A stretch of 64,000 nt of DNA from Candidatus Adlerbacteria bacterium (GTDB taxonomy: Bacteria > Patescibacteriota > Minisyncoccia > Phycocordibacterales > SBAW01), in the NCBI GenBank assembly GCA_963796795.1, contig CAWCNA010000013.1:11571-75570 (forward strand). The letters run 5' to 3'. The notes below the pieces were generated by a model, which made no database searches, was not told the origin of the DNA, and was given only the letters and a program-made list of their open reading frames with translations. How positions within the stretch are numbered: the first letter of the stretch is position 1; every line of letters begins with the position of its first letter. Both the position numbers and the translations under genes were made by a program. Below, piece after piece: positions 9,825 through 39,818 of the stretch.

Positions 9825-9876
9825 GGTATAGTCTGACGTAAGATTTTTGAGCTTTGCTTTTAAGTTGCCGTTGGTG

Positions 9877-13626: not shown

Positions 13627-14587
13627 GCGTTGTCGAGTTCCCTGCTACAAACAGGTTGCCGCCGATGTAGGCGTCACTTGCTGTCTGGAGCACACCCGGG
13701 GCAGATGTTGCGACACCAACGCCCAAACCAACCGCAAAGTAACCACTGCCTGTCGTGCTTGCATTGCCGTTAACGATACTGTCGCCATGTGTATTGAAAC
13801 TGCCCACGTTCAATGCTCCGCTTATGGATGCATTGGTTGCAAATAAATTTGTCGTTGACGCCACCTGCGCAAAGAAGTTTGTCGTTGTTGCGTTGGAAAG
13901 AAGTGTATTGCCCGAGACTGAAAGTGTTCCGAGTGTTGTGGTTGCGGCGTTAAACGTGCCTCCAACGTTCGTGTTGCCTAGGACATCAAGGCTGCCAACG
14001 CTCCCATATGTTGCAAAAATGTTATCAGCCTTCGTATCACCGTTAAGTGTTGTGTTTGAAAGGTTATTTATAAGCTCAGGAAGAACAAAGTTCTGCAACG
14101 GGCTTTCGCGGCCGGGGTTTTCAAGGTTCGAAATCTGGATGGCAAACTTGTTGGAAAGGTCCCCGAGGCGCGCTGTGAGTTCGTCTTCAGAGATTCCACC
14201 AGACCCTACAGCCTGTTGCACAACCGTACGTTCAATGACCGGATAATTATTTACGATGGTAGGCGGTGGAGTCACAACGGGAACCGTTGGTACCGAAGCA
14301 GAACTGTTTCTGAGGAGAAGTCTGGCCGACCGAAGGGAGGAGATCCGAGGACTTCTCTGAAGAATTGTTCTGTGGAGGTACATCAGCAACTTTTGAAGTA
14401 TGTCCAAACAACGTTGCGAATATTCCTGACAAAAAGTTTGAAGTGCCTGTGACAGCTGGTGCGGTTGTGCCGAAGAAAGGTGTTTCAGCTGCAGAGACCG
14501 CAGCAAATGATGGTCCGCCAGCTGGCGGATTTGTATTAGGTACAAGCGTCGAAGCAAACACAAGCGAGCCGAGCAGCAGGATCGCAC
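13112..14587 (-). CDS. Giant surface protein paralog B, segment (real frame only about 13620-14320)
   Basis: 'SEDELTARLGDLSNKFAIQISNLENPGRESPLQNFVLPELINNLSN...' matches 'TEDELTTRLADLQNKFAVQISNLENPGRESPLENFALPELINNLSN' of the intact paralog. The ORF's own N- and C-terminal parts are out-of-frame junk. It is joined to the flanking ORFs by frameshifts. Confidence 0.55.
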   Translation of the reverse strand: MRSCCSARLCLLRRLYLIQIRQLADHHLLRSLQLKHLSSAQPHQLSQALQTFCQEYSQRCLDILQKLLMYLHRTILQRSPRISSLRSARLLLRNSSASVPTVPVVTPPPTIVNNYPVIERTVVQQAVGSGGISEDELTARLGDLSNKFAIQISNLENPGRESPLQNFVLPELINNLSNTTLNGDTKADNIFATYGSVGSLDVLGNTNVGGTFNAATTTLGTLSVSGNTLLSNATTTNFFAQVASTTNLFATNASISGALNVGSFNTHGDSIVNGNASTTGSGYFAVGLGVGVATSAPGVLQTASDAYIGGNLFVAGNSTTLGNSSSNTLVINSSIHSDIVPDQKHYVQSWFTIVFLEQRIRGHHYCQQHRRQQYANRRDTVGKLYDQFRQRIVGCRRCKHHLLPRQRSPQRVAGLELDRKNVCLQSAIVYPKCIIKRRQCCNVGFERFDGPDSRFVASCIFDRCLLLGSRSRRPHRHRHIDASIVGRYFCN

Positions 14588-14912
14588 CTGCCACCAGTCC
14601 TATAGGCGCACCGACAGAGACCTCCTTCGCGCGCAAAAAAATATTCTGCAAGGCAGTTTGCTGCTCACGCACGTTTTCGCGATATTCACTCGAAAGAGAT
14701 TTTGAAAGTTCAAGTCTGCGCGCCTCGCGCTCTGTTGCTTTTTGCTCAAGGTATGAAGAAAGCGATGTTGGGTCGACATACCACACGCCATCAACAAGTT
14801 TTCCTTGCACTGCCTGTCTGCGACAAAGCAACGCAACGTAGTCGTTGGTCTTTTTAAAATCGCGGGCTGCCGCGACAGAAGAAATATATGTTTTTGGAAT
14901 TTTCTCGCTCAT
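14247..14912 (-). CDS. Giant surface protein paralog B, N-terminal segment (cytoplasmic HTH-like domain plus TM anchor)
   Basis: Start placed at 'MSEKIPKTYISS' by analogy with 'MSPQKKIFS' of paralog A. 'DYVALLCRRQAVQGKLVDGVWYVDPTSL' is followed by TM 'VGAPIGLVAGAILLLGSLVFASTL' and 'TPFFGTTAPAV...NFLSGIFATLFG', all conserved with paralog A. The upstream part of ORF 14247..15089 looks non-coding. Confidence 0.65.
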   Translation of the reverse strand: MSEKIPKTYISSVAAARDFKKTNDYVALLCRRQAVQGKLVDGVWYVDPTSLSSYLEQKATEREARRLELSKSLSSEYRENVREQQTALQNIFLRAKEVSVGAPIGLVAGAILLLGSLVFASTLVPNTNPPAGGPSFAAVSAAETPFFGTTAPAVTGTSNFLSGIFATLFGHTSKVADVPPQNNSSEKSSDLLPSVGQTSPQKQFCFGTNGSRCDSTAYHRK

Positions 14913-15300
14913 CGTTTTTACAACGAGTTGAGAAGCGAACTGTCCAAGTGCTGTATGGTCGTATCGCCGGTTTGTGCGTACCTCGGCGAAGTAACCAAAT
15001 AAAGAAAGGGCAGTCCGCCAATCGACGGATGCCCTGTTGCTATAAAGTATATCCTTGTACCTGTTTTTAATGCATATACATATATGCACTCATATGGGGA
15101 TAAGAAATTTTAATGGAGGTCGGTCCTCCGCAAATTTGAAAAAATTGTATCAATCTTGAAACCCTAAAGCTATAGTTGACACACATCTCCAATAGATGCT
15201 GAATGTGTAAAAACACTATTTTCCGCGCATTACTTCTATCCGAGATTTGTTATATATCAACATATCTCGGATAAACAGATACAGAGGACCGACCTCGGTA
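14913..15300. promoter_or_regulatory. Upstream region of paralog B with a cluster of inverted repeats
   Basis: Hairpin GGAGG-tcggt-CCTCC at 15115..15129. A perfect 9-bp inverted repeat ATCCGAGAT/ATCTCGGAT at 15238..15272 with a 17-nt AT loop. GAGG-accga-CCTC at 15284..15296, which is the near reverse complement of the 15115 element. Palindrome TGCATAT.c.ATATGCA at 15071..15089. Confidence 0.4.
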
Positions 15301-17001
15301 TTATTGCTGGGTGCTGGTTGCGGCACCTGCCTGCGCAGGCAGGGACACTATAATAGTGCGGGTTGCAGTGCCTGTGTTCCCTGCCCCGTCGGTCGCACTA
15401 AAGAGGATGATATGGGTGCCTGGGGTGCTTGTATCGAGAGTAAATTGGGCTGGAGACGTGCTTGTCGCCCCGTCCAGAGACATGCTGTAGCCGATGTTTG
15501 GGCTTGATGTGCTGGTTACAGTAACGCCCGGATCTATATATGTATCACCAACATTGAGCTGTGCTGGATCGGCACCGATGAGAGTTATTGTCGGTGGAGT
15601 TGATGTGGCGGAACCCGAGGAGTCACCTCCTCCGGAGGAAACACCTCCGGTTCCTTGAGGTGTCGAAGTAGCAGTCCCGTTCAACAAATTATTAAGTTGT
15701 GTGCGCGTGACACATGTCTTGCCTGTTGCATCTGTGATGCAGAGTTGGTCGGTATCAACTTCTTTTGCAAATACTTTATCGAATACGCCGACGCTCGCGT
15801 ATATTGCCTTGCCCATCACTTCTACAACTTCGTTACCTATACTTTGTAGTACGGTTTTCAATCCATCACTTGCATTAGCAAATACTCCGGCCCATTCAGG
15901 AGTTGAGGTTGCGTTTGTCGAGGTAGCAGTCGTTAACTCAACAACAGAAGTCGTGCCGAGCAAGTTAAATGTATTTTGATTTATATTTGATGCCAAAATT
16001 TGGCCCGTGAGATTCAAGTTGCCATCTTCATCCAGCACTGCAATATTCTTGCCCAACTGGTTTTTAAATGTCAGCCCTTGTGGAGTATCAGGAGATTCTG
16101 CAATTCTGAAGTTGTTTGCAAACACTGCGTCACCAAAGAACTGGTCGCCTGTTGCGTTGTTATTAGAATTGAGGAGCATTGACGACGATGTAAGGGCGAG
16201 ACCAACCTGATACGCGGAGGTCGATGTGGAGAGTCCACCTGCTGGACTCCAGAAATACGTGTTCCCTGCTGTCAGCCCTGACAACCCTCCGACAATGCCA
16301 GTTGATGCAACTGTCACTGTGCCATTTGCACTTGCTGCATTTGTTGCCATACCAAGGACGGTAGGATTTGTAACAACACCAACAGACGCGTTTGGATAAT
16401 TATTGCCGTCGACAAACCCATAGACATAGTGTGTCGAGTCGAGATCTGCAATTGTTATGTAATTGTAATTACTAAGGGTGCTCGAAATAATATAAGAATT
16501 GTTCGGTGTGATGGTCGTGCCGGAGACCGTGGACGCCGAAGCTCGAACTTGTTTTAGCGATGGATCTAAGTACCCGACAATAAAGTTGGTGGAACTTAAC
16601 ACTGAAAGTGAAACGTAGGAGCCTGCGTTAATGTCGCTAGAAGTAGTGGTATTACCGGCAATTGTGGAAGGGCTTCCGCAGGAAACAGAAGTTCCCGAAA
16701 TTGTGCAGGCTGTTGCCCTAACTGCATATGGTATAGGAGGAGGACTGACATTGCTGTACGCCTGCAGATAGGCGACAACCAAAGCACTCGAAGAGAGAGA
16801 TGAAATAGAGAAGTAAGCCGGGGCATACCCGCCGCCACCGGCGTTCGTGGGAGTACCGCATGTAGGGGTAGTCCCCGAGACCGTACATGCAACGACTTTT
16901 GCTTGGTTGAGGGTGCCATCCCCGAAGGTCTCAGCGAAGCTCGATGAAGAGAGAGCCGTAACGGCAACGTTAGCGTCGGTGTTCTGAATTCGCGTCGACA
17001 T
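15301..17001 (-). CDS. Giant surface protein, 3'-most segment of the gene A array (FFGDAVFANNFRI domain and DUF5011-like C-terminus)
   Basis: 566-aa ORF ending 'TPPTITLIGADPAQLNVGDTYIDPGVTV...GTATRTIIV'. It continues ORF 16970..19156 across an apparent frameshift at ~16970-17001. Confidence 0.65.
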   Translation of the reverse strand: MSTRIQNTDANVAVTALSSSSFAETFGDGTLNQAKVVACTVSGTTPTCGTPTNAGGGGYAPAYFSISSLSSSALVVAYLQAYSNVSPPPIPYAVRATACTISGTSVSCGSPSTIAGNTTTSSDINAGSYVSLSVLSSTNFIVGYLDPSLKQVRASASTVSGTTITPNNSYIISSTLSNYNYITIADLDSTHYVYGFVDGNNYPNASVGVVTNPTVLGMATNAASANGTVTVASTGIVGGLSGLTAGNTYFWSPAGGLSTSTSAYQVGLALTSSSMLLNSNNNATGDQFFGDAVFANNFRIAESPDTPQGLTFKNQLGKNIAVLDEDGNLNLTGQILASNINQNTFNLLGTTSVVELTTATSTNATSTPEWAGVFANASDGLKTVLQSIGNEVVEVMGKAIYASVGVFDKVFAKEVDTDQLCITDATGKTCVTRTQLNNLLNGTATSTPQGTGGVSSGGGDSSGSATSTPPTITLIGADPAQLNVGDTYIDPGVTVTSTSSPNIGYSMSLDGATSTSPAQFTLDTSTPGTHIILFSATDGAGNTGTATRTIIVSLPAQAGAATSTQQ

Positions 17002-22227: not shown

Positions 22228-22708
22228 GTGCCGCAGTCAGTTGTGCGGTGAAGTTTGCTGTAAGGGATGCTGTCGCAGAAGCAAGCGCAGTATTTAATGT
22301 ACTTGTTGAGACGAACGAAGAAAGATCAGGGAATGTAACCGGAGTAGTAGTTGCCATAGTTGGCCATGCATTTCGGCAATCACCGTTCAAGCACAGTGTG
22401 CTTGTAGTTGTGGTCCCTGCAGTGAGCAGATCAGTAACAGTTGACGTTGCGTTGATTTGATCAATATTGGTGTTGCTGATGGTTGTCGTTCCAGTTAGAA
22501 AGACATTTTGTGCAGAGATGTTCCCTCCCACATTAAGATTGCCATCTTCATCGATGCTCAAGATCTGCCTGCCGAGCTGGTTTTCAAAGTTGAGTGCATT
22601 CGGCAACCCCGGATTTTCTGTAATTCTGAAGTTGTTGGCGAAGACCGCGTCACCGAAGAATTGGTCTGTGGCAGAACTTACTCCCCCATTGCCCGAGTTG
22701 AGAAGCAT
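22160..22708 (-). CDS. FFGDAVFANNFRITENPG-domain segment, probable continuation of ORF 22678..33462 via frameshift
   Basis: 182-aa ORF overlapping the stop of the 3594-aa ORF by 31 nt. It encodes the domain that follows the repeat region in every paralog and ends 'FTAPDLSAYAKLF'. Confidence 0.5.
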   Translation of the reverse strand: MLLNSGNGGVSSATDQFFGDAVFANNFRITENPGLPNALNFENQLGRQILSIDEDGNLNVGGNISAQNVFLTGTTTISNTNIDQINATSTVTDLLTAGTTTTSTLCLNGDCRNAWPTMATTTPVTFPDLSSFVSTSTLNTALASATASLTANFTAQLTAALAAIPTSTPFTAPDLSAYAKLF

Positions 22709-25700
22709 CGAAGTGGTGGTGAGGGCGATGCCGACTTTGTAGGACTGTACGGTAGTAGTGAGGCCAGTTGTGCCGAAGTAGTACGTACTTCCCCTGTGAG
22801 ACCAGACAATCCAGTCACAATACCGTTTGATGCAACGGTCACTGTGTTGTTGGTGGTCGTCGTGGCATTCGTTGCCATGCCGAGGATGTTGGGGGAAGTG
22901 ACGAGTGGTAACGTGCCGACGACGGCGGTGGCCGCGAAGGGCGCATTAGTAACGTTCTGATACGCCACCGCGAAGTGAGTGGAGTCGAAGGCGGCGACGG
23001 AGGTGTAGAGGGAGCCAACGCCGTTGAGGATGACAGGCGTACTTGCGGTAATAGTAGTGCCGGAGACCGAAGAGACAACGGCGCCGATAAAATTACTGCT
23101 GCTGATATTTTTATACGCCACCGCGAAGTGAGTGGAGTCGAGGGCGGCGACGGAGACGTTGCTGGTGCCGATAGAGTTAAGGGCAGTGGGTGTTCCAGCA
23201 GTGATGGTAGTACCGGAGACGGTGCTGACGACGGCGGCGTCGCCACCATTGGTACCATCTCCATACGCAACGACGAAGTGAGTGGAGTCGAGTTTGGCGG
23301 CGGAGTCGTAGTTGGAGAGGACAGCATTGAGGACGATGGGGGTGCCGACAGTGATGGTGGTGCCGGAGACGGAGGAGGCAACGGCGTTGGCAAAAGTTGT
23401 AGAAGAATTCCGATACCCCACCACGAAGTGCGTGGAGTCGAGGGCGGCGACGGATTCGTAGTCGGAAGGGACAGCATTGAGGGCGATGGGGGTGCCGGCA
23501 GTGATGGTGGTGCCAGAGACGGAGGAGGCAACGGCGTTGGCAAAAGTTGTAACAGAATTTTGATATGCCACCACGAAGTGCGTGGAGTCGAGGGCGGCGG
23601 CAGAGATCGGGTAACCAGCGGAGTAGGTGGCGTTTACGGTAACGGCCGAGCCGGGGGTAATGGTGGTGCCTCCCGAAACGGTGCTGACAACTGCGGAGAC
23701 GTAGTAAGGCGTGGCTTCAATATACGCCACCACAAAGTGGGTAGAGTCGAGCGCGGCGACGGATACCTCGTTAAGAGCGTTGGAGGTGATAAGAACAGGA
23801 GTGCCGGGAGTAATTGTGCTACCAGATACGGAGGAAACGACCGAGTAGACGTAGCCGGTACTGCCATCATTATACGCCGTTACGAAATGTGTGGAGTCTA
23901 GGGCAGCGGCGGAGATGTTTGTGGAGTTGGTAGAATTGAGAGCAACAGGAGTTCCCGCGCTAGGAATAGTGCCAGTTGTATTAACAACTTTCGTTGCCTT
24001 CCCATTGATGTAAGAAACAATATCACCAACATTAATCTGTGCACTCCCTGAATCAACAACATAGTCAGCAGTCAAATTCTTGAGCTTTGCAGTGAGTGCA
24101 CCAGTAGCATCAACTTTGAGAACGTTTGCACCTGTTGATGAAGCAAGGTCGAAGATATCAGTTGAGCCAGGTGTTCCCTGTATAGAGAGAGTTGCAAGTG
24201 GTGAAGTCGTACCGATGCCAAAGAATCCAGCAGCGCTGAGTGTAAGAGTGGATGTACCAACTGCAGTGTTCGTACCAGAGAAGTATGTGAGTTGGCCAGT
24301 TGTGCCTTGCGGAGTAGTGAGGCAGGTGCCGTTGTACTGGAAGCAACCACCAGTAATGGAGATACCGCTTGCAAACGTACTCGTTGAAAGATTCGTGACA
24401 ATGAGATTTGAGAGGGTTGAGGTGCCTGCACTAAGCGTACCTGCACCAACAATGTTGCCTGCCGCGTCGATGGTGGTGGTTGCAGTTGCACCGAAGTAGG
24501 CTTTCTGGAAGATGGAGAGCTGTGAGGTAGAAGCGTTGGTGAATTGCAACTGACCCGTTGCGAATGTCCCTCCGATTGAAAGGTTGCCTGGGATTGAAAG
24601 GTTGCCTGTATTACTAATGTTGAAGACTGACGCATAGCTCTGCGTACCAGGAGCACTGCGCTTGAGTGAGAACGCATCACTCTGCCCACCAAGCTGGAAG
24701 TCCCATGCAGAGTAGGAGTTGTTGATGAGTGAACCAGTACCTGTGTCGTTTGAGGCAATGTTTAAGTCGCCTGTGTTGGACGGTATATAGAAGGAGTATG
24801 GAATGGCGGCATTGCCGTTTGCACCAGAGAGGTTAGCTAAGGTGAGGAGTGATGAATTACCAGACGCATAGTTCCCTTCTACATCAAGCTTTGCCTTAGG
24901 TGCAGTTGTTGATGCAATACCAAGGCCAAGTGAACCTGATGTATTGAGGTAGATGTTGTTACTTCCCCAGTTGTTGGAGTTGAGGGCGGTGTTGAGGTTG
25001 ATTGGAACAGTGTGAGTAGTACCGCCAGTTGAGGTGACATACAAAGAGACAACATCACCGGGTACAAGTGGTGCACCCGATACTGCAGAGTTTGTTTCAG
25101 TAAAGGTGAGGTCGCCTGCATTAACATTTTTTGCAAATACATCAGTGAAGCGGTTTGTTGCAGTACCAAGCGTAAAGAGATTGTCGCCTGCTGGCACTAG
25201 GCTACCGTCCAGAGTGCCGCCTGCAAGAAGTGTTCCATTTGCACTTGATGATGCAATTGCAGAGAGTGCTGATGCAAGCTGAGTGCCCGTGATGTAGGTG
25301 GAGAGGGTTGAACTTGAAACAAACTGGGTGAAGTCAGGGAGAGAAGCGAAGAATGAGGAGGTTGCGAGGGCGAGTGCGTTGTTAAATGTGCTTGTGGAAA
25401 CAAAACCCGAAAGATCGATGGGTTGGCTCGATGATGCTGTGGTGGTACCGAGCTGATCAAAACTATTAATGCAGGTGCCGCCAAGGCACAGTGCAGTAGT
25501 GGTTGTGGTCGCTGCGGTGAGAGTGCCGGTTGTTGTTGTTGAAGCAGTGAGTGTATCTGCCACTACCCCATTAAAGAGCCCTGTCGTTGCGTATAGTGCA
25601 TGGTCGAATACGTGGACTATTGGGTCGGTCAGTGATGCGAGCGCACCTCGGACAAGGCCACTCGATGCTGCAAATGCGCCCGACCATGGTGTTGCAGGCG

Positions 25701-28700
25701 TCGATGTTGCCGAGGTGGAAGTGGTAAGGTCATTTACACTCGTTGTTGCGAGTAACGAATCAATGTGTGTCGAGAGCACATTAACTTGTGCAATAAAACT
25801 GGTGAACAAATTCGAAATTGTATCACTCACTGAAGGCGTCGAGCTTGCATCACTTTGTGTGCTGCTTGCCGATGAGCCGTTTAAGAAACGATTTGTTATT
25901 GCTTGAATAAGGCCGCCAACAAAATCGAACGCATCTGTCGTTGTTGCAGTCGGCTGCGCGAGCAATTGCTGTCCCACCGCCGAGGCATTCGTCCCTTTTT
26001 GAAGATTCAAAAATACTTCTATCGTTGTGCCGGTTGAACTTGCCGTAAATGCCTCAAGCGCATTTCCAATTGACGGGTCGAGCGGGCCCGCTTTCATACC
26101 AACACCCGGCACTGACGAAATAGTTATTGGGTCGCCAATTGCGATGGGGCCGTTTTCAAGCGAGACCTTTGTTGGCACACGGCCCGACAGCGCCACTTCC
26201 CGCTGCCCGCTTGTGTCGGTAGGTTGTGCAAGCACAAGCCCTGGGTCTGTTGAGATAACACCTGCGAGGATATTTGCCTCTCCTTCCGTAGCGCGCGTTA
26301 CATTCACCGGAGTTGATGTATCAAACGCGACGATATCGCCGGCCGCTATAGAAGAGTCGAGTACTGGGTAGTATTCGGCGAGGTCGGCACCGCCGTTTGT
26401 GAGATAGCGCACAATAACAATACCCGAACCGCCCGTACCCGAGCCGGTATTCCATCCGCCATTTGGAGCCCAGTACGAACATCCGCCGCCGCCGCCGCCG
26501 GTGTTTGCTATCGCATTCGGAACTGCACTTCCTTGCGTGGTTCCGTTAACCCCAGCGGAGTATGAAGAATAGCTGTAATAGGATGTTGTGCCGCAGCCAC
26601 GGCCGCCGCCGGCAAATCCATCGCCTGCGCGCTCGCTCGAGTTACCGCTACCGCCGCCGCCGCCTGCGTATGCAACCGACGAACCGGTGATGGAACTCAC
26701 GTATCCCGCACCGCCGTTGCCACCTGTCGCACCACTACTGCCGCTAATACCCTGGCCGCCTGCACCTCCGCCGCCTGCACCAGTCCAACTTACGGTGCTA
26801 GCGCCGCCGGCATTTCCATACCCATTTGTTTGCGTAGATGCACCTGCAGCACCGCCGCCTTGTGCCGCGCCGCCGCCCGAACCGCCGCTACCTGCGGCGG
26901 TTGCACTCCCAGTCGAGGCGCCGCCGCCGCCGCCAAGTGCTGTGTAGGTACCGAAGACGGAACTTTGGCCATTATTACCAACGCCAATGGTGACACTTGG
27001 AACGGCAGCACCGCCGTTACCAACAGTAACCGTATAGGCGCCGGGAGTTACGGGAACAATGGTGTCAATAACGCCGCCGCCGCCGCCGCCGCCGTTTGCG
27101 TTTGTCGTATTGTTATTGCCGCCCGAGCCACCGCCGCCGACAACGAGCACTTCCACGTTTGCACCCGTTGCGGCAGAAGAAACGGTAAATGTGCCACTTG
27201 TTGTGAAAGTCTGGATAGTATAGAGACCGCTCGTTGTCACCGTGCCACCGGATGCACTCACCTGGCCGGTTGGAGTTGGAGTTATATCTGCGACACTTGT
27301 CGAAGGATACGAGCGACCCGGACCCCACATTATGCGCACCGCGCCCGAGCCACCATTGCCACCGCCAAACGATGTGCCGCCACCGCCACCGCCACCGCCG
27401 TATGCACCACCATATATAGTACCGTTTGCACTTTGGCTACTACTTGGCTCGCCGAAGGCACCGTTCTGGCCGCCCGAACCACCACCACCGCCACCACCGG
27501 TCCCTAATGTACAGCCACTCACACCGTCAGAGCCTTGCCCCAAAATGCCAACGCCGCCGCCGCCGCCCGAACCGTACGTAGAAGAATATGAGCACGGGCC
27601 GCCGCCGCCGCCCGACCCAGTTTGTGCTGCAACACTGTTACCATCTGCACCGTGGCCTGCATATCCGCCTGCGCCACCCGCATCATAGGTGGTGCTTGTA
27701 TTACCACCGCGGCCGCCGCCGTCGCCGGTAAAACCGCCACCCGAATTTACAGTTGATGCCGTTGACCCCGAACCTCCTTGCCCCGCACCATAGCCAGCAA
27801 CAGTAGCCGTGCTTACGAAATAAGAATTGTTACCGTTCGTGGGCGAAGTACTGTACGTGCCGCCCGCACCGACCACCACGGTATAGGTCTGGCCCGGTAC
27901 CACGGTAATATTATTTTTATATCCGAGGCCGCCGCCCGCACCGCCATGGTTCGACCAGGACGACGAACCGCCGCCGCCGCCGCCGACTGCAACCACGCTG
28001 ATGCTTGTGACGCCCGCTGGTGCCGTCCACGAATAGGTGCCGGGGGCAGTGTAGGCTTGCTGGCCTGGTGCGGGAATAGTTGTAAGGCTAAATGTTGCGA
28101 TGGTCGGGCCTACTGTTAGTGTTGAAGTTAAGGTAACGGAATAAATACTCGAGGACGTCATACTCACTCGCACATATTGATTATTGAGTACAGTACCCGG
28201 CGAACTGGTCCAATTTTGGACGACAGACGCACACGCGCTGTCACTGCACACTTGGTATTGGGGCGATCCAGAGCCACTCACCGAAATTGCTACAGGAATG
28301 TTTATGCCCGTAATCTGCTGAGTCGTCGACGTTGCAACGCTAGACAATTGAACAAGGCTGCCTGCGGTTTGATCGGTTGTGAGTGTAGAAGGAAATGAGC
28401 GCCCACTGCCCCATATAATGCGCACGGCACCCGAGCCGCCTGCGCCGCCGCCAACAGTTGTACCAGGGCCACCGCCACCGCCACCGTATGCGCCGCCTGT
28501 GATTGTTCCGTTCGTACTTTGGTTACTATTTGGCTCTCCATCAGCTCCATTTGCACCACCCGAACCTCCGCGGCCGCCTTCCAAACCGGCACCTGAGGTA
28601 CCTGCCACCCCACTTGTACCTTGGCCCAAAATACCAACACCGCCGCCGGCAGAAGTGCCGTAAGTGCTCGAATAGTAATACCCGCCGCCGCCACCACCAC

Positions 28701-31700
28701 CTGAGCCGTTGAATCCGCTGCCTACACCGGCTCCGTTGCCACCATTTCCGGCGTAGCCGCCTGCGCCGCCGCCGCTTTGGTAGTTGGGAGCATTACCTCC
28801 TGCGCCGCCGCCGTCGCCGACATAGCCGCCGCCGGATGAGTTGTTATTCGCACAACCAGTTGTGCCTGTCCCAGCGTTACCTCCGCCGCATCCTTCAACT
28901 GTTGCTGTCGAATTAAAATATGAACTGCCTCCAATACCCCCCACAGATGCTGTGGTACCTCCTGCACCAACCACAACGGTATACGTCTGGCCCGGTACCA
29001 CAGTAATATTATTTTTATATCCGAGGCCGCCGCCTGAACCTGCTGGATTCGCCCATGTTTGCGAACCGCCGCCACCGCCGCCGACTGCAACCACACTCAC
29101 GCTTGTCACGCCGGCTGGTGCTGTCCAGCTATAGGTGCCGGGGGCAGTGTAGGCTTGCTGGCCTGTAACAGCTGAATTACTAAATGAGAGAGGGTTAGGC
29201 GTTCCAAGGCCTGTGCCAACTTGCCATGTTGCACTGCCATCGCCTGCCCACACCGTCACGGTGCTTGTTGCAAGGTTGGTTGCAAACGTTGTAGTGCGTA
29301 ACTGCAATGTCTGGCCGCTTGAGATATATCCTGCCGTCTCCCATGCGCTACCATTAATGCTGAACTGCGGATCGCCGTCGCCAATAATACGAACAGGAAC
29401 GGCGCCATCAAAGTTGGTGAGCGTATCGATAGCCGACGATGTTGCGGCACTCAACTGCGCTTGTGTCGTAGACGCAAAGGTAAACGTAGCAGGAATAATT
29501 GTCGGATTATTTATCGGCGCCCATGTCGTGGTGCCGCCCGTATTTGTGCATCCTTCAAAATTAGATGTTGCTTGATTGAATCTAAAAATACCGAGTTGCG
29601 CCGTAGTGCACGTTGCGGAAGAATTTCCTACTCGTATATTTCCGGCAACATCGAGCGTTGTCACTGCTGTTGTTGTTCCAACACCAACATTTCCGTTTGG
29701 CGATATAAACAATGTTGAAGTGCCTAACGCTTTGTTAGTTCCTGAAAGATATGCGACTTGGCCTTGAGTACCCGAAAGGCTTCCTAAACACTGGCCCTGA
29801 ACGGAGACACAGCCAGTTGTTACATTAATCGCACTGGCTTGTATGCCCGCAGAAAAGGTTGAGGTCGCGTTGTCTATCAAGTAGATGGAATTTGTTCCAA
29901 CATGGAGTTGGCCTTTTATATCGACGTTGCCAGTGAAGGTCGATGAGGCAGCACCACTGTTTGCTACGTAGAGCGGTCCATTAACAGCGAGGGTCGCTGA
30001 TGGAGTGGATGTGCCGATGCCGACCGAACCCGTACTCGTTACAACAAATGAAGGATAGGTAAGCGGCCCTGTCGAGGTTGCGATAAAGAAATTATTGCCG
30101 CCGTTTTGCAACACATCCGTTCCCGCAAACCAATTGCCGAGGGCGGCTGCAGTATTTCCTCCCCCCGCAAATGCAATGGCAGTCGCAAATGAATTAAGGT
30201 CGGTATTATCGATTTGCAAACCATAGCGCAAGTCCCCAGTAGCGCGCCCGTTGCCAAGTACCACAAGCGGGCCGCCAGGGGTCGACGTTCCGATACCTAT
30301 GCGGCCGCTCAACAGGAACGAATTGCCGAGGTTCGTATTAAGCGTGGTGTACCCGAGCCCCACAGGGCCCGACGCGGACACGTACAACCCAGATGAGTTG
30401 CCCGGCGCTATCTGGATGTCATGGAAGTTTCCACCCAGAGGCGCTGTCGTGGTGAGTTTTAATATATTTGATATGAACGAGAGATTTCCATCTTCATACG
30501 TAGACGGGCTTCCAACATTCCAAATATTTATACCTGCGGGGCCAAAGTTGCCTGAAAGGAAGCGCGACGTAGAAGAGCCAAGGAGCGAGGTGTTGTCGGA
30601 CGCCGGCGTAATACTTCCGCCTACGTTAATACTGCCGTTTGTATTTATAAAAAGCGACGACGTGCCCATTGCCGTGTTCGTGCCAGAGAAATATGCAACT
30701 TGTCCCGGCGTGCCAATAAGTGCCGGACTCGACGTTGCAATAAGTTTTCCGCTTGCATCAACTGCAATAAACGAGCCTGCGGGAAGCCCGAGCGATGAAA
30801 GTGTCAGTGTGCTCGTTGCTGTGATGGCTCCGCCGAAGAATGCAGAACCACTCGTGTATTGATTGCCTTCCACTGCAAGCGTTGTTGATGGCGATGTCGT
30901 ACCAATCCCAACATTGCCATTGTCTGCAATGGTCATGCGCTGGAGGCTATTTGTAAAAAAATTGAGGAAGTTACCGTCAGTTGCCGTAATGTACGTTGTC
31001 TGTGCAGCGTTGATAACACCCCCCAGGCCTTGCCATACGCTATTGTCACCAAAACCTTCAAACTGATGCGTGGTTGTGTTGTAGCGAATTTGTCCCGTTA
31101 AATCTTCTGCGGGGCGCTGTGCTGATGTACCAACCGGCAAGTGCAGCGCGTCAGTTGCAAAAATATCAAGAGAAGATGCTGGGGTTGAAGTGCCTATACC
31201 AATCCTTCCACCCGACCCAACTTCCAAATAACTCGCCCCTGTTGACGACGCAATGCGGAGAAGATCTGCAGTTTGTCCTGCCAAACCTTTCAAATCGAGT
31301 GTCACAACATTGCCGGTATTGTTCGACGCATTTTGTATAAATACAGGTTGGTTGAATGAGAAGTTCTTTGTGGAAGAATTCCATCCGAGTACGGCATTCG
31401 GTACTACGTTGCCGCGGAAGAAGATGAGGTTGGCGTCTTCTGCATCTGCACTTACGTTGTCAGAGTTGATTGTGAAGTCGGAGCTTTGTGTGCCTCCAAT
31501 CTGGGTGTTGCTTGCAACGATGTTGTTGGCGTTAATGGTGCCGACGTAGACATTTCGCCAGAAGAACGAGGGCGAACCGAGATCATATTGGATATTTTGA
31601 TCAGGCACGATGCTCGAATTTATTGATGAGTTGATAGTGAGAGTGTTTGAAGATGAGTTGCCAAGCGTTGTTGAGTTTCCGGCTACGAATAAGTTTCCAC

Positions 31701-33462
31701 CGATGTAGGCATTGCTTGATGTTTGGAGCACGCCCGGTGCTGATGTTGCGATGCCAACGCCAAGGCCGCCAGCAAAATATGCATTACCGGTGGTTGTTGA
31801 ATTACCTGAAATGTTTAATGAAAGAAGTGTCGTTGAGGCGGCAGTGAATGAACCGAAGCTGGCCGTTTGAGCAAAGAGGTTGGTAGAAGATGCGGTGGTT
31901 GCAAAAAATGCACTTGAAGTTGCGTTAGCGAGTGTAGTACCTGCCTGCGCAGTCAGGTTGCCAGTAACCACCAATGCTCCCAGCGTCGAAGAGGTTGCAG
32001 TGAATGTTCCCACAGATGCAGTCTGTGCGAAAAGATTTGTTGTAGAGGCAAGAGTTGAAAAGAAATTGGTAGATGTTGCGTTTGCCAGCGTCGTATCCCC
32101 CAAGACAGTAAGTTTGTTAAGTGTAGTCGTGCCAAGTGATGTCAGATCCGCGCTGAAATAACCCGCACCTTGCGAAAAGATACTTGCTGCGGCAAGCGTT
32201 CCTGCAAATGTCGACGTGGATGTGTTTTGGACAATGAGGTTTGAAACGGTCGTTGTGCCCGCAAACGCCGTGCCTGGGGTTCCGTTGTTGTTCTCGACCG
32301 TGAGGTTGCCTGCAATGGTGGTATTTCCATCAACATTCACATCGCTGTTGAAGTACGCGATGCCTGTTGTCGTTGCATTGCCGTTTACGGTGAGGTTGGC
32401 GGTTGTTGTTGTTGCGGTGTTCAGTACGCCACTGATGTTGGTGTCGGAGAGGTTTGTGGTGCCGGTGACACCGAGCACGCTTGTTTGCAAATACTGTACT
32501 GCAATATTGTCCGCAACCGTATCACCATTGAGGCGTACGTTCGAAAGATTGTTGATGAGCTCCGGCAATGCAAAGTTCTCTAGTGGGCTTTCGCGGCCTG
32601 GGTTTTCAAGGTTAGAGATCTGAACTGCAAATTTGTTTTGTAGATCTGCGAGGCGCGTTGTGAGTTCGTCTTCGGTGACGCCGGAAACTACGTAGGCAAT
32701 TGGAGTCGAAGCAGCCGAAGCAGAATTGTTCTGCGAAGGCGTCGCAAGAGTCTGCGAAGAAACAGATGGGTATGTGGCCTGTGCAGAACTTACAGCACTG
32801 CTCGCTGATTCCGGGTACGCAGATTCCCTGCTAGGAATCTGCTCAGTCCGGGGGTCCACGGAGTGGACGACGCTCTGCGGAGCCCCTGCATCAGCAACAG
32901 TGCTTCCACTCTTTCCAAACAACGTTGCAAACATTCCAGACAAAAAGTTTGATGCACCTGCAAAGGCATTTCCTGTGTGGGGCAATACAACTGCCGGTGG
33001 CGTTGTGCCAAAGAATGGAGTTTCTGATTGTGATACTGCTGCTGTAAGTGCCTCGCCCGCGGCCGGGCTATGGCCGAGGGTTGATGCAAACACGAGCGAG
33101 CCTACCAAAAGTATTGCACCCGCAGCAAGACCTATAGGAGCACCGATAGTTGCCGTATGAAATGCAAGAACACTTTTCTGTACAAATGTGCCGTGTTGTT
33201 TTTGATACGCAAGCGTTTCATTGCGGCGTTGCTGCCCAAGAGATTCTGCACGCTCCTGCTTTGCAAACATTCGCGCTTGCTCAAATACAGCAATAGATGC
33301 CGGGTCGACGTACCACTGGCCTTCAAGCAATTGGCCAACAAGTTTACCTTCGCGGCACAGCTTCGAAACATAATCCTGTGCGCACTTCAAACGCGCCGCC
33401 GCTTTTCGAGCTGATAGCAGCGGTCGGCCGTCGTTTGAAAATATTTTTTTCTGAGGAGACAT
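22678..33462 (-). CDS. Giant surface protein paralog A, intact 3594-aa ORF (N-terminal excisionase-like HTH, TM anchor, β-rich extracellular region)
   Basis: Uninterrupted 10.8-kb ORF. N-terminus 'SARKAAARLKCAQDYVSKLCREGKLVGQLLEGQWYVDPASIAVF', then TM 'IGAPIGLAAGAILLVGSLVFASTL'. Three Gly-rich domains begin 'YTAPGTYSWTAPAGVTS.SVVAVGGGGGGS' and end 'GAVRI.WG'. The 'LYVTSTGG...FSLKRS' cassette is present. There are 'AALDSTHFVVAY' repeats of about 40 aa, at least 8 copies. Confidence 0.8.
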   Translation of the reverse strand: MSPQKKIFSNDGRPLLSARKAAARLKCAQDYVSKLCREGKLVGQLLEGQWYVDPASIAVFEQARMFAKQERAESLGQQRRNETLAYQKQHGTFVQKSVLAFHTATIGAPIGLAAGAILLVGSLVFASTLGHSPAAGEALTAAVSQSETPFFGTTPPAVVLPHTGNAFAGASNFLSGMFATLFGKSGSTVADAGAPQSVVHSVDPRTEQIPSRESAYPESASSAVSSAQATYPSVSSQTLATPSQNNSASAASTPIAYVVSGVTEDELTTRLADLQNKFAVQISNLENPGRESPLENFALPELINNLSNVRLNGDTVADNIAVQYLQTSVLGVTGTTNLSDTNISGVLNTATTTTANLTVNGNATTTGIAYFNSDVNVDGNTTIAGNLTVENNNGTPGTAFAGTTTVSNLIVQNTSTSTFAGTLAAASIFSQGAGYFSADLTSLGTTTLNKLTVLGDTTLANATSTNFFSTLASTTNLFAQTASVGTFTATSSTLGALVVTGNLTAQAGTTLANATSSAFFATTASSTNLFAQTASFGSFTAASTTLLSLNISGNSTTTGNAYFAGGLGVGIATSAPGVLQTSSNAYIGGNLFVAGNSTTLGNSSSNTLTINSSINSSIVPDQNIQYDLGSPSFFWRNVYVGTINANNIVASNTQIGGTQSSDFTINSDNVSADAEDANLIFFRGNVVPNAVLGWNSSTKNFSFNQPVFIQNASNNTGNVVTLDLKGLAGQTADLLRIASSTGASYLEVGSGGRIGIGTSTPASSLDIFATDALHLPVGTSAQRPAEDLTGQIRYNTTTHQFEGFGDNSVWQGLGGVINAAQTTYITATDGNFLNFFTNSLQRMTIADNGNVGIGTTSPSTTLAVEGNQYTSGSAFFGGAITATSTLTLSSLGLPAGSFIAVDASGKLIATSSPALIGTPGQVAYFSGTNTAMGTSSLFINTNGSINVGGSITPASDNTSLLGSSTSRFLSGNFGPAGINIWNVGSPSTYEDGNLSFISNILKLTTTAPLGGNFHDIQIAPGNSSGLYVSASGPVGLGYTTLNTNLGNSFLLSGRIGIGTSTPGGPLVVLGNGRATGDLRYGLQIDNTDLNSFATAIAFAGGGNTAAALGNWFAGTDVLQNGGNNFFIATSTGPLTYPSFVVTSTGSVGIGTSTPSATLAVNGPLYVANSGAASSTFTGNVDIKGQLHVGTNSIYLIDNATSTFSAGIQASAINVTTGCVSVQGQCLGSLSGTQGQVAYLSGTNKALGTSTLFISPNGNVGVGTTTAVTTLDVAGNIRVGNSSATCTTAQLGIFRFNQATSNFEGCTNTGGTTTWAPINNPTIIPATFTFASTTQAQLSAATSSAIDTLTNFDGAVPVRIIGDGDPQFSINGSAWETAGYISSGQTLQLRTTTFATNLATSTVTVWAGDGSATWQVGTGLGTPNPLSFSNSAVTGQQAYTAPGTYSWTAPAGVTSVSVVAVGGGGGGSQTWANPAGSGGGLGYKNNITVVPGQTYTVVVGAGGTTASVGGIGGSSYFNSTATVEGCGGGNAGTGTTGCANNNSSGGGYVGDGGGAGGNAPNYQSGGGAGGYAGNGGNGAGVGSGFNGSGGGGGGGYYYSSTYGTSAGGGVGILGQGTSGVAGTSGAGLEGGRGGSGGANGADGEPNSNQSTNGTITGGAYGGGGGGPGTTVGGGAGGSGAVRIIWGSGRSFPSTLTTDQTAGSLVQLSSVATSTTQQITGINIPVAISVSGSGSPQYQVCSDSACASVVQNWTSSPGTVLNNQYVRVSMTSSSIYSVTLTSTLTVGPTIATFSLTTIPAPGQQAYTAPGTYSWTAPAGVTSISVVAVGGGGGGSSSWSNHGGAGGGLGYKNNITVVPGQTYTVVVGAGGTYSTSPTNGNNSYFVSTATVAGYGAGQGGSGSTASTVNSGGGFTGDGGGRGGNTSTTYDAGGAGGYAGHGADGNSVAAQTGSGGGGGPCSYSSTYGSGGGGGVGILGQGSDGVSGCTLGTGGGGGGGSGGQNGAFGEPSSSQSANGTIYGGAYGGGGGGGGTSFGGGNGGSGAVRIMWGPGRSYPSTSVADITPTPTGQVSASGGTVTTSGLYTIQTFTTSGTFTVSSAATGANVEVLVVGGGGSGGNNNTTNANGGGGGGGVIDTIVPVTPGAYTVTVGNGGAAVPSVTIGVGNNGQSSVFGTYTALGGGGGASTGSATAAGSGGSGGGAAQGGGAAGASTQTNGYGNAGGASTVSWTGAGGGGAGGQGISGSSGATGGNGGAGYVSSITGSSVAYAGGGGGSGNSSERAGDGFAGGGRGCGTTSYYSYSSYSAGVNGTTQGSAVPNAIANTGGGGGGCSYWAPNGGWNTGSGTGGSGIVIVRYLTNGGADLAEYYPVLDSSIAAGDIVAFDTSTPVNVTRATEGEANILAGVISTDPGLVLAQPTDTSGQREVALSGRVPTKVSLENGPIAIGDPITISSVPGVGMKAGPLDPSIGNALEAFTASSTGTTIEVFLNLQKGTNASAVGQQLLAQPTATTTDAFDFVGGLIQAITNRFLNGSSASSTQSDASSTPSVSDTISNLFTSFIAQVNVLSTHIDSLLATTSVNDLTTSTSATSTPATPWSGAFAASSGLVRGALASLTDPIVHVFDHALYATTGLFNGVVADTLTASTTTTGTLTAATTTTTALCLGGTCINSFDQLGTTTASSSQPIDLSGFVSTSTFNNALALATSSFFASLPDFTQFVSSSTLSTYITGTQLASALSAIASSSANGTLLAGGTLDGSLVPAGDNLFTLGTATNRFTDVFAKNVNAGDLTFTETNSAVSGAPLVPGDVVSLYVTSTGGTTHTVPINLNTALNSNNWGSNNIYLNTSGSLGLGIASTTAPKAKLDVEGNYASGNSSLLTLANLSGANGNAAIPYSFYIPSNTGDLNIASNDTGTGSLINNSYSAWDFQLGGQSDAFSLKRSAPGTQSYASVFNISNTGNLSIPGNLSIGGTFATGQLQFTNASTSQLSIFQKAYFGATATTTIDAAGNIVGAGTLSAGTSTLSNLIVTNLSTSTFASGISITGGCFQYNGTCLTTPQGTTGQLTYFSGTNTAVGTSTLTLSAAGFFGIGTTSPLATLSIQGTPGSTDIFDLASSTGANVLKVDATGALTAKLKNLTADYVVDSGSAQINVGDIVSYINGKATKVVNTTGTIPSAGTPVALNSTNSTNISAAALDSTHFVTAYNDGSTGYVYSVVSSVSGSTITPGTPVLITSNALNEVSVAALDSTHFVVAYIEATPYYVSAVVSTVSGGTTITPGSAVTVNATYSAGYPISAAALDSTHFVVAYQNSVTTFANAVASSVSGTTITAGTPIALNAVPSDYESVAALDSTHFVVGYRNSSTTFANAVASSVSGTTITVGTPIVLNAVLSNYDSAAKLDSTHFVVAYGDGTNGGDAAVVSTVSGTTITAGTPTALNSIGTSNVSVAALDSTHFAVAYKNISSSNFIGAVVSSVSGTTITASTPVILNGVGSLYTSVAAFDSTHFAVAYQNVTNAPFAATAVVGTLPLVTSPNILGMATNATTTTNNTVTVASNGIVTGLSGLTGEVRTTSAQLASLLPYSPTKSASPSPPLRCFSTRAMGE

Positions 33463-33881
33463 TAGTCCGATATAGCTTTTATTTATGCAGTGATTTCGGA
33501 GGGAGCACTACGTTTATTGTACGCGGTGTTGCGAATATTCTTCAGAGAATTTTCATAAAAAACTGTGGATAGAATATATAAAAAATTATATTAAAAACAA
33601 TTTCTAGAATGCCTTATAACAAGAGTTAGGTATTACTTTTGATATAAAAATCATTTTTTTATATTACGTTCGTATATCGAGAAAACTCTTATTGCATAAA
33701 AATAACTTTTATTTATAAATCTCGTGTAAACGTTTTACAAAGAAGAATAAAGATTTATCGTCTTGCCGTACCCATATCTCGGCTAGAAGAGTTCGTATAT
33801 AAAAAGAAAAATACTCCTAAAAATCTAATTTCTAGAAGTATTTTGTGCCGCCACTAGGGCGTTATCTAGCTCGCTGGTTTC
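33463..33881. promoter_or_regulatory. AT-rich 420-bp upstream region of giant gene A
   Basis: Sharp drop in GC between two minus-strand genes. Two identical 11-mers AATTTCTAGAA (TTCTAGAA palindrome) at 33599..33609 and 33827..33837. Several TATA-like tracts. Confidence 0.45.
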
Positions 33882-34664
33882 TTACTGTTGGCCGTTTTGA
33901 CAGTTTCCAAAAATGAAGCACAGTGTCTTTTCTTGCGAATATGAGACGCTTGCCGTCTGCCCTTTCTGCACCGTTACCGTTGTATCCAAGCCCAATGACC
34001 CGAAAAAGGTAAATGCCAAAACTACGGCTCCTAAAGCCGTTACTCCTGTAACTGCTAGCGCCGTTACAAAAGGATTTCTTTTTTGTACGCGTCTTTCTTC
34101 TACTATCACTACCGGCTTCTCTGCGGGCGCAACATATATCGCCGCCGCAGGCACCGTTCTCGGTATATCGTTTGTTCGTTTTTGTATAGCAGGAAACAAC
34201 GGGCCCGAATCCGAGATATAGGTAAGCCCCGTTTTTTTTATCGGCACACTCCGAACAGGCTCTGAAATAAATACTTCTTCTTTTCGAATCGGGACAACAT
34301 ACTCGGTCGGAGCAGGAACAGGCTTGGCCGAAACGTTGGTAGGCACGACGGTGCCGGACATAGGAGAATTTTCAACAGGAAATTCTCCGCGTTGAGGCGA
34401 GCTTGGTTCCTGCGCAGGTACATATGTTTTTGCGACTATCTGTACTGGGGTAGCCGAGGGAGCAGGCGATATGTAGGTCTTGCTCTCCTTGTTGAGGTAG
34501 TCGGCAAACGAGCGTTCTTCCACGTACCATGCCCGGCCCACCTTGGTACCCAAAATCTTGCCTCCACGGATAAGCTGGCCGATATAATCCGAATGGTACT
34601 TGTTTTCCTTGGCAATACGTTTAGACGAGATGTATCGCTTCCCCGAGATTTCTAGTTCATCCAT
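33882..34664 (-). CDS. Small paralog of the giant-protein N-terminal module (excisionase-like HTH plus single TM), 260 aa
   Basis: Start placed at 'MDELEISGKRYISSKRIAKENKYHSDYIGQLIRGGKILGTKVGRAWYVEERSFADYL', which shares the motif with both giant genes. Pro/Val-rich linker, then TM 'FVTALAVTGVTALGAVVLAFTFFGSLGL' and a ~40-aa tail. Confidence 0.6.
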   Translation of the reverse strand: MDELEISGKRYISSKRIAKENKYHSDYIGQLIRGGKILGTKVGRAWYVEERSFADYLNKESKTYISPAPSATPVQIVAKTYVPAQEPSSPQRGEFPVENSPMSGTVVPTNVSAKPVPAPTEYVVPIRKEEVFISEPVRSVPIKKTGLTYISDSGPLFPAIQKRTNDIPRTVPAAAIYVAPAEKPVVIVEERRVQKRNPFVTALAVTGVTALGAVVLAFTFFGSLGLDTTVTVQKGQTASVSYSQEKTLCFIFGNCQNGQQ

Positions 34665-34741
34665 TTGCCTACAGTATATACATATAATAAAAACCCCGCT
34701 AAGCGGGGTGTGCAAAACTATGCAAGGCTAAGCCTTGCATG

Positions 34742-38918: not shown

Positions 38919-39818
38919 CTACGCTTGCTTGCGATGCACTTGCGCCGCCAATGTCTTGGTACGTGCTGGGAGCTCTTCGAGCCTCTTCTTCTGTTCTTCG
39001 CTGAACAGATGCGCCGACGGAGAGTCGAGCAAGTCCTTCACATATCCACTTGTGGTACGAATGGCATAACGGTACGCGGGCTCAAGAAGCAACTTTCGCT
39101 CCTCAAGCGCCAGAACGGGGTATTGTTTTGGCCGGTCAATGTAATACTCCCCCTTCTTACCCTCCCAGGCAACAAAGTCGTGCGCCTGGTGCCAATTGTT
39201 GGCGAGAATGCCGATAAAAAGCGTGCGCTCCTCATCCGTATACTTCCCACCTTCGGGAAGATAGCGCTCCGGCTTAAGCATTGGCCAATACGCTTCGTTC
39301 AAATACCCAAAGACACGCAAACGCTGTTCTAAATTCAGCTGAAGTTCGCCCTTCTTATTAAGTGTAAGGATGGTTTTTGCCCTGTCACTCAGTCGGGCTT
39401 TGGAATCGAGAGCTCCGGCGAGTAGGAGATGAAACTCCTTCTCGTTCAACGCGAGCTCTTTTGTGCGCCCAAGCGCCCGATACGCCCATGCATCATTAGC
39501 GATGATGCGCGCAAGCGCCTTTTCGCGGATCTCGGCGCTCGTATCGTGCTTAAGCACTTCTTCGACACGGCTGAAGTACTTTTCGTCGAGCAAACGCGCA
39601 GCGAGCCGTGACACCAAGTCAACATGGCGTTCGAGCCCTTCGTAGTATCTACCGCGCAACGCGAGGTAGATATATTCGACGTTTTCAGCACCCACTAAAT
39701 ATTCGAGGATGCTGCGCTTGGACATGCTGTTGAGCCCGCGCACGGACGACAAGATATCGTACGTGACCTTCTCGTTGTGGGGCCGGACAAGTGGCAGAAT
39801 GCGTGTGACGTCAACCAT
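38919..39818 (-). CDS. Hypothetical protein, 299 aa, helical
   Basis: Clean ORF with no recognisable motif. Confidence 0.4.
   Translation of the reverse strand: MVDVTRILPLVRPHNEKVTYDILSSVRGLNSMSKRSILEYLVGAENVEYIYLALRGRYYEGLERHVDLVSRLAARLLDEKYFSRVEEVLKHDTSAEIREKALARIIANDAWAYRALGRTKELALNEKEFHLLLAGALDSKARLSDRAKTILTLNKKGELQLNLEQRLRVFGYLNEAYWPMLKPERYLPEGGKYTDEERTLFIGILANNWHQAHDFVAWEGKKGEYYIDRPKQYPVLALEERKLLLEPAYRYAIRTTSGYVKDLLDSPSAHLFSEEQKKRLEELPARTKTLAAQVHRKQA

Follow-up and report, generated by a model that had tools for sequence, protein, structure and literature searches.

A divergent excisionase/MerR-type winged helix at the predicted cytoplasmic end of giant and small membrane-anchored proteins of Candidatus Adlerbacteria

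Introduction

Why should a giant protein of the bacterial surface begin with a domain of the DNA-binding type? The question is raised by a stretch of 64,000 nucleotides (nt) from a Candidatus Adlerbacteria bacterium (assembly GCA_963796795.1, contig CAWCNA010000013.1, positions 11,571 to 75,570 of the forward strand), which we call the window and whose own numbering is used throughout. On its minus strand lie two giant genes, A and B, and a small gene, C, whose products share an N-terminal domain of about 50 residues. Parcubacteria/Paceibacteria are ultra-small and are presumed to rely on other cells, and the contact apparatus should be sought first of all among their giant surface proteins. 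In the literature we found no description of how such giant surface proteins are anchored or controlled. A preliminary description of the window had proposed that the shared domain is a helix-turn-helix (HTH) of the HTH_17 type, that a single transmembrane (TM) helix follows it and leaves it in the cytoplasm in a RodZ-like arrangement, and that C might be a dedicated partner of A.

Results and discussion

The three peptides quoted in the preliminary description are all present at their positions, exactly as quoted. When the window was translated in six frames from stop to stop, a profile made from the three copies recovered only A, B and C, with 102-109 bits, and the next-best match had an expect value (E) of 0.46. 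A and C are also linked by BLASTP (33% identity over 49 residues, E=2e-7). Because of the profile scores and the A/C match we regard the similarity as real and not as an effect of composition, and the motif said to be shared by three genes is found in exactly these three.

The domain belongs to the excisionase/MerR-type winged helix superfamily (Pfam HTH_17, PF12728), of which it forms a divergent branch. A matches HTH_17 with 19.6 bits (E=0.0011; residues 15-63 on model positions 1-49 of 51) and C with 17.1 bits (E=0.0067), whereas the scan of B for HTH_17 gave no match. The gathering cut-off of PF12728, a curated score threshold and not a biological feature, is 27 bits; A, B and C themselves fail it, while their membership holds by homology through close relatives. 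Ten relatives from among the best were scanned, and all match HTH_17, seven of them above the cut-off at 30.7-57.2 bits. Individual scores, all for relatives found with profile A1 at E<=1e-25, are 57.2 (P0004), 41.1 (P0006), 41.1 (P0031), 37.7 (P0012), 61.3 (P0014) and 37.9 bits (P0122); some database relatives carry a precomputed PF12728 annotation. The proposed assignment to HTH_17 is thus borne out, by matches below the cut-off for A and C and above it for their relatives. None of the NCBIfam models matched A, B or C.

Structure prediction leads to the same answer. The AlphaFold2 model of A residues 1-91, calculated from a 65-sequence alignment, reaches a mean predicted local distance difference test (pLDDT) of 91.3 and has the topology of a winged HTH (wHTH), with a strand (14-17), a first helix (18-25), the recognition helix (29-38, DYVSKLCR), a beta-hairpin wing (43-46/49-52, WYV) and a long C-terminal helix (54-90), so that the winged-helix fold anticipated in the preliminary description is the one predicted. 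Nearly all structural neighbours are DNA-binding domains, and the fold is that of the Xis/MerR class and not that of OmpR. The model of a relative with two tandem HTH copies (predicted template modelling score, pTM, 0.54) gave the same structural matches as the single domain; no TraN-like two-domain match was seen, single domains alone being aligned. Sequence searches of the PDB with profiles A1 and A2 gave nothing significant.

On which side of the membrane would this domain lie? Each copy in A, B and C is followed by one hydrophobic helix and preceded by none (Table 1), in agreement with the single TM helix noted before. The same was seen in a set of 154 sequences, made up of the best profile matches and the three window proteins: a hydrophobic helix ahead of the domain occurs in none, a scorable one after it in 121, and the sequences that lack a scorable TM helix are mostly short fragments. 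Lysine plus arginine (K+R) number 3.60 on average in the 15 residues before the helix and 1.47 in the 15 residues after it (n=121); the N-side count is higher in 98 proteins, equal in 14 and lower in 9, and the window counts are 2 vs 0 for A, 2 vs 0 for B and 5 vs 1 for C. No signal peptide stands ahead of the basic folded N-terminal domain. Given the positive-inside rule, the lack of any earlier hydrophobic segment or signal peptide and the basic N-terminal domain, the HTH is predicted to be cytoplasmic and everything past the TM helix to lie outside (N-in, C-out), by a rule-based call (positive-inside) and not by a dedicated predictor. The cytoplasmic placement proposed earlier is thus favoured by the flank charges in 98 of 121 relatives. 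Only 43 residues of C would lie outside, against thousands of A and of B.

The three window genes belong to a very large family, so far met only in Parcubacteria/Paceibacteria. A six-sequence profile searched against 1.84 billion cluster representatives found 7,642 of them at E<=1e-3, of which 3,055 reach E<=1e-10; a scan of a genome collection with the single A sequence found no relative. The named source organisms are Candidatus Paceibacterota, Parcubacteria, Minisyncoccota, Yanofskybacteria and Taylorbacteria, and the members go by 'hypothetical protein', 'immunoglobulin-like domain-containing protein' or 'trimeric autotransporter adhesin'. Throughout the 154 sequences the architecture is uniform, with one or two HTH copies invariably at the extreme N-terminus, a linker, one TM helix and then about 50 to more than 5,000 residues. 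One copy is present in 36 and two tandem copies in 118 of them, a tandem share that is overcounted because tandem proteins score twice. Among the giants are P0005 (3,277 residues), P0010 (5,279), P0037 (5,533) and P0088 (4,660), and in mid-size members Pfam found no informative fused domains.

Conservation continues on either side of the TM helix. The Arg/Glu-rich helix of A, between HTH and membrane, keeps the pattern R..A(K/R)..R(S/A).EL...R(R/K).E among A-type relatives, and past the TM helix the A-type giants share (A/S)A(A/S)(L/V/I)A-Q(L/V)x-SPFFG, an FxxLFG segment, a Pro-rich spacer and NTYPVIER; A and B carry the TPFFG and FATLFG versions of this juxtamembrane module. The small-x-small residues ahead of the Gln resemble a signal peptidase I site, though they stand 10-30 residues past the TM helix. 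Further out, A has three tandem Gly_rich_2 (PF21722) domains (25000-28500, minus strand), each preceded by a near-identical stretch (QQAYTAPGTYSWTAPAGVTS...), and near its C-terminal end a series of repeats of about 60 residues that terminate in AALDSTHF(V/A)VAY.

The core unit is a conserved pair of a small and a giant HTH-TM gene in a housekeeping neighbourhood (obg-gatB, secA). A narrow A-type alignment, applied to species-representative genomes and reaching close relatives only, recovered eleven loci, and in all eleven a small HTH-TM gene (243-330 residues, stop to stop) lies directly upstream of the giant one on the same strand, across an AT-rich gap of 384-688 bp. Locus L001 has the order obg-gatB-small-giant, as in the window, and L004 repeats the order and sizes of the open reading frames of L001 and the window. 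A distant lineage, represented by the small protein P0031 with two HTH copies, has secA-gatB-small-giant, and the giant there starts with one HTH. Adjacency therefore holds in 12 of 12 distinct loci (the eleven and the distant lineage), and gatB precedes the pair wherever upstream genes are annotated. This strongly supports the suggestion that the small paralog is a dedicated partner. The small member P0026 stands in a different genomic context, so the family extends beyond such pairs.

Several small genes end in a terminator hairpin of their own, and the giant gene should therefore have its own promoter. The gatB of the window is 78% identical to that of a Candidatus Adlerbacteria metagenome-assembled genome. 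Between C and its Adlerbacteria ortholog the overall identity is 47%, with the HTH, the linker motif LTYISDSxPLFP and the TM helix with its Cys-containing tail (KTLCFIFGxCQN) nearly unchanged. C itself starts only about 28 nt past the terminator hairpin of gatB (34693-34709), with TATACT about 7 nt ahead of its ATG; no Shine-Dalgarno sequence was seen ahead of C (34664-34710, minus strand), and its mRNA may be leaderless or near-leaderless. Exact-sequence look-ups of C, of a TTG-extended C and of a B fragment found none on record.

What, then, does the domain bind? We tentatively regard a membrane-tethered DNA-binding module as its most likely role, a view to which we give slightly less than an even chance. 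We favour it because of the structural neighbours, the residues at the contact positions, the net charge (+2.0 to +3.6) and the conserved boxes upstream of A and B. As such a module, the HTH would keep the giant surface protein and its small partner attached to the chromosome by their cytoplasmic ends, and this tether would either regulate the giant gene or couple an envelope structure to the nucleoid in very small cells.

The contact positions were read from a comparison with BldC, using a BldC sequence that we take to be correct and that agrees with the residue numbers in the paper. With this presumed sequence, on which the alignment rests, the recognition helices align position for position (KTVTRWAKAGKL vs DYVSKLCREGKL) at a residue offset of four. 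BldC is a MerR-like minimal wHTH that forms head-to-tail multimers on direct repeats (PMC5859096; PDB 6amk), which the tandem copies in the small partners recall, and 51 of 52 residues of the two domains superpose at 1.5 Å (PDB 6amk). In the BldC-DNA complex K26 and R30 contact bases, T27, T29, W31 and K33 contact phosphates, and the wing residues H46, R47 and R48 enter the minor groove (PMC5859096). The family has Y31, S/G33, L35 and R37 at the phosphate contacts (for T27, T29, W31 and K33, respectively) and K/Q34 at the base contact R30, so that the phosphate-contact positions and one base-contact position appear compatible with DNA binding.

Possible target sites are found upstream of the giant genes. 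Alignment of ten small-giant spacers revealed conserved blocks within otherwise unalignable AT-rich DNA, among them CCGAGATATCGG...GACGATAAA, and a conserved 5' leader of A is kept in the orthologous C-A spacers. Against an expectation of 0.2, the window has three copies of the element CCGAGATAT, one upstream of A, one upstream of B and one, as reverse complement, inside C. The copy upstream of B is part of an inverted repeat (TATCCGAGAT.../...ATCTCGGATA) which at L006 (9681-9700) is a perfect 20-bp palindrome. This TATCCGAGAT/ATCTCGGATA element lies far upstream of the giant-gene promoters, with arm spacing that varies by locus, and could be a protein site or a hairpin. The octamer TATCCACA is invariant in 13 of 13 spacers examined and stands, always on the gene strand, 40-43 nt (mostly 42 nt) upstream of a -10-like hexamer. 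In the more general form TATCC(A/C)CA, identical to a DnaA box in its best copies and in most copies with this spacing, the box is found on the minus strand at 33564-33571, 42772-42779 and 15095-15102 and at L001-L012, and promoters with it span distant Paceibacteria.

The preliminary description had pointed to other sites. The AATTTCTAGAA sequence occurs in only two copies, both between C and A and none upstream of B; we rejected it as an operator, one of the two copies lying within the terminator-like hairpin after C. Nor are the TTCTAGAAAT sites conserved elements like the spacer blocks. The spacer was considered as an origin of replication (oriC) on the strength of TATCCACA and dismissed as such, given a single box per spacer, the fixed distance to the -10, two promoter classes and the constant gene strand. 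Rfam returned nothing meaningful on the C-A spacer.

Several observations weigh against DNA binding as the role of the domain. On the DNA side, the TATCC(A/C)CA box stands at the same spacing ahead of the promoter of a conserved Lys-rich open reading frame next to secA, and TATCCACA equals a DnaA box and is not specific to the giant genes; we therefore treat it as an operator lead and not as evidence. Its probable ligand is some activator, or else DnaA in the role of a transcription factor. On the protein side, the base-contacting K26 of BldC is replaced by an invariant Asp (D30), and the basic wing is lost, with H46, R47 and R48 becoming W50, Y/F51 and V52; the wing of A and B has E/D and no Arg or Lys. 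Moreover, D30, Y31, L35, R37, G39 and W50 are conserved at 97-100% in two sub-classes and at 81-100% in the third. From this invariant recognition helix we infer one common ligand and not many operators. It could be a DNA element shared by all, the backbone of DNA or a conserved protein; such a surface agrees equally well with a protein partner that is conserved and with a DNA site that is common to the family.

Such a protein partner is the best of the alternatives, and we consider it possible although on balance rather unlikely. The wHTH would then not bind DNA at all; it would dock onto a conserved cytoplasmic partner or onto the HTH of its neighbour (C with A), to form one membrane complex. 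The near-invariance of the six residues in all three sub-classes is what one fixed partner predicts, and the vanished basic wing residues and the acidic residue at the BldC base-contact position fit it too. So do the strict adjacency of small and giant genes with the domain on both, and the conserved linker motif and outside tail of C, which suggest several partner contacts. Protein-binding members of the same fold exist (CbpM, DafA, RppC, TorI), and RodZ provides the precedent of an HTH that binds MreB. The majority of structural neighbours, however, bind DNA. Furthermore, the domain is net basic and retains Y31, S33, K/Q34 and R37 on the recognition helix, and the two tandem copies in many small members (118 of 154 sequences) are typical of DNA binders that read repeats, such as TraN and the BldC multimers.

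We judge it improbable that HTH and TM helix together form an over-long signal region that paces or targets Sec export of the giants. In one version the giant may be cut at the small-x-small site before Q-x-x-SPFFG, leaving an HTH-TM stub behind. The conserved sequence at this place, 10-30 residues past the TM helix, does obey the -3/-1 rule of signal peptidase I, several lineages have secA linked to the locus, and the module is constantly found at the extreme N-terminus. But a hydrophobic core of this length (about 19-23 residues, or longer) is what uncleaved anchors typically have, and the candidate site is too distant from the helix for canonical signal peptidase. Small partners such as C carry the same module and export only about 40-50 residues with it, and the module is therefore not merely there for exporting giants. 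We know of no signal extension that consists of a folded 50-residue domain of the DNA-binding type.

A long shot is that giant and small partner form a genetic switch coupled to export, or that a cleaved HTH-TM stub is a transcription factor. For the switch, the HTH, as the first-translated part of a gene of more than 11 kb, would bind the conserved boxes in its own promoter region while the next segment inserts into the membrane, so that the gene would be tied to the envelope by transertion with a dedicated DNA clamp. Alternatively, the ectodomain would be cut at AxA-Q-x-x-SPFFG and the stub freed by intramembrane proteolysis, a bacterial circuit akin to that of Notch/SREBP and built into a signal anchor.

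It is highly implausible that the domain was left behind by a mobile element, as a recombination directionality factor (excisionase) fused to its neighbours by chance or mis-assembly: its sequence and fold are nearest to phage and integrative and conjugative element excisionases, but Pfam finds no recombinase, integrase or other mobile-element gene among the window neighbours, those with a match being all housekeeping genes, and the reading is contradicted by the syntenic chromosomal site across genera and by a fusion kept in thousands of clusters with the same architecture.

How does a membrane-tethered domain of this DNA-binding type compare with known systems? Excisionases of the HTH_17 family (Xis, AlpA, RdfS; PF12728) share the fold; the family described here is membrane-tethered, chromosomal and away from integrases, and has an invariant D-Y opening the recognition helix and no basic residues around the wing Trp. 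A, B and C are not next to a tyrosine or serine recombinase, and occupy the same chromosomal site in other genera. BldC is a free protein of 68 residues with the wing H46/R47/R48; none of the three genes encodes such a free protein of about 70 residues, their domain having W, Y/F and V in the wing and being fused to a TM helix and, in the giants, to large C-terminal parts.

RodZ has an Xre-type HTH (HTH_25), which binds MreB while tethered to the membrane, and a C-terminal DUF4115 domain. The RodZ-like character noted in the preliminary description holds for topology, in that the HTH is N-terminal and cytoplasmic and a single TM helix separates it from a C-terminal part on the outside, and fails for homology, the Xre-type HTH of RodZ being unrelated; Pfam and NCBIfam detected no Xre-type HTH, DUF4115 or RodZ model in A, B or C. 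ToxR, CadC and TcpP bind DNA at the membrane through an OmpR/PhoB-type domain (Trans_reg_C) and expose a compact sensor on the outside. They resemble the family in the cytoplasmic N-terminal winged helix, the single TM helix and the outside domain, and the predicted N-in bitopic topology is theirs as well. Unlike them, the family has an HTH_17-type domain and an outside part that is tiny or of several thousand residues, and Pfam found no Trans_reg_C in A, B or C.

RacA, the chromosome-anchoring protein of Bacillus, is soluble, contacts the membrane via DivIVA and has no TM helix or extracellular part. The likeness to RacA (PDB 5i41) is one of concept. ESPR and YSIRK likewise add a conserved element to the very N-terminus of giant surface proteins, before a hydrophobic segment, but they are short linear motifs next to a cleaved signal peptide, whereas here a folded domain of 50 residues and a helix of 35 residues precede the membrane. 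No paper on this architecture turned up in the literature searched, in which subscription journals are incompletely covered, and neither Pfam nor NCBIfam yielded a model for this module in particular.

The DNA-binding fold itself is known, and what is new is its abundant, membrane-anchored and gene-paired context. Thousands of giant proteins, and the small partner next to them, share a predicted cytoplasmic domain of the DNA-binding type, a concrete and abundant module without informative annotation. Should DNA prove to be its ligand, the module would represent a new class of DNA binder, tethered to the membrane and joining envelope and chromosome directly; should the ligand be a protein, the module would mark a cytoplasmic hub for the assembly of surface structures. 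The domains are small and soluble, and these predictions are open to study in vitro without cultivation of the organism.

Features of the locus

The coordinates of the features are collected in Table 1.

Table 1. Features of genes A, B and C and of their upstream regions in the window
Feature	Position	Strand	Remarks
Gene A, open reading frame	22678..33462	-	3,594 residues; ATG 33462; wHTH, charged helix, TM helix, giant Thr/Ser/Gly/Asn-rich extracellular part with three Gly_rich_2 domains (predicted layout)
A, wHTH	33274..33429	-	residues 12-63
A, Arg/Glu-rich long helix	33193..33303	-	residues 54-90, between HTH and membrane
A, TM helix core	33085..33141	-	residues 108-126; from hydropathy 2.15 and flank charges
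A, extracellular juxtamembrane module (predicted side)	32914..33021	-	AAVS-QSE-TPFFG (148-152), FATLFG (178-183)
Gene C, small partner	33882..34664	-	260 residues; ATG 34664
C, wHTH	34497..34643	-	residues 8-56
C, linker motif	34191..34220	-	YISDSGPLFP, conserved; linker variable, Pro-rich
C, TM helix	34014..34070	-	residues 199-217
C, motif of outside tail (predicted side)	33900..33920	-	KTLCFIFGNC, conserved; tail of 43 residues
Gene B, second giant paralog	7590..14912	-	ATG 14912; ~2,440 residues with four frames joined
B, wHTH	14751..14897	-	residues 6-54
B, TM helix	14541..14597	-	residues 106-124
B, TPFFG	14469..14483	-	
B, FATLFG	14403..14420	-	
B, C-terminal domain	within 7590..14912	-	Bact_surface_Ig-like
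C-A spacer	33463..33881	-	AT-rich, 30% GC
Terminator-like hairpin of C	33808..33844	-	conserved in orthologous loci
CCGAGATAT in C-A spacer	33774..33782	-	conserved in orthologous loci; half copy of the inverted repeat upstream of B
TATCCACA(G) in C-A spacer	33563..33571	-	invariant
-10-like TACAAT	33516..33521	-	42 nt downstream of TATCCACA
B upstream region	14913..15303	-	
Inverted repeat TATCCGAGAT.../...ATCTCGGATA	15237..15273	-	15-nt arms; includes CCGAGATAT at 15262-15270
TATCCCCA	15095..15102	-	upstream of B; TATACT 43 nt further on

The giant genes are not continuous in the present assembly. B, which the preliminary description had taken as one giant gene, is not intact; three frame changes split it over four frames (15089->14250, 14599->13115, 13644->9880 and 9890->7590). 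A continues beyond its apparent stop at 22678 through further frame changes, and with the frames joined it could run from 33462 to 15304, about 6,050 residues. Two junctions (22168 and 19085) share the context CTTTTCTGA, in which one T fewer restores the repeat unit, and a third (~22795) needs an extra G in a GGGG run (G4/G5). secA (39911-42426, minus strand) is broken into at least four frames. Given the short homopolymer contexts and the similar breakage of secA, the breaks in all three genes are most likely assembly indel errors at short homopolymers and not signs of pseudogenes. Recoding or programmed frameshifting was considered and appears unlikely: the frame after the UGA misfits a reading of UGA as Gly, one break is a G4/G5 ambiguity and secA is broken too. 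The public 280-residue protein P0139 is identical to the first B fragment, so that the public record has the same break.

The window neighbours with a Pfam match are gatB, obg, GAPDH, rpe, transketolase, a DsbD-like gene, secA, murB and Wzy_C/TPR; the Pfam scan of the neighbour at 38919-39818 gave no match. Over the whole 64 kb no tRNA gene and no Rfam family at the gathering threshold was found.

Between murB and secA (~42577-42621, minus strand) lies the Lys-rich open reading frame mentioned above, MA(A)KKKKAAKKKR(K/R), of 13-18 residues. Its region (42430-42780, minus strand) is also present at L001 (1300-1700), L002, L004, L005, L007-L009, L011 and L012, and gave no Rfam match. It has its own promoter (-35 TTGTAT, -10 GATACT), a conserved leader with the complementary segments AGAGCATCGAGAT ... 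TGTCCGCGGACAA ... GGTCGGTCGATG, and a conserved ATCCTCTCGAAAGAAAA with a terminator after the reading frame; it could encode a leader peptide of secA or a very small basic protein. Nearly all genes between 1.5 and 46 kb of the window lie on the minus strand, those between 46 and 59 kb on the plus strand.

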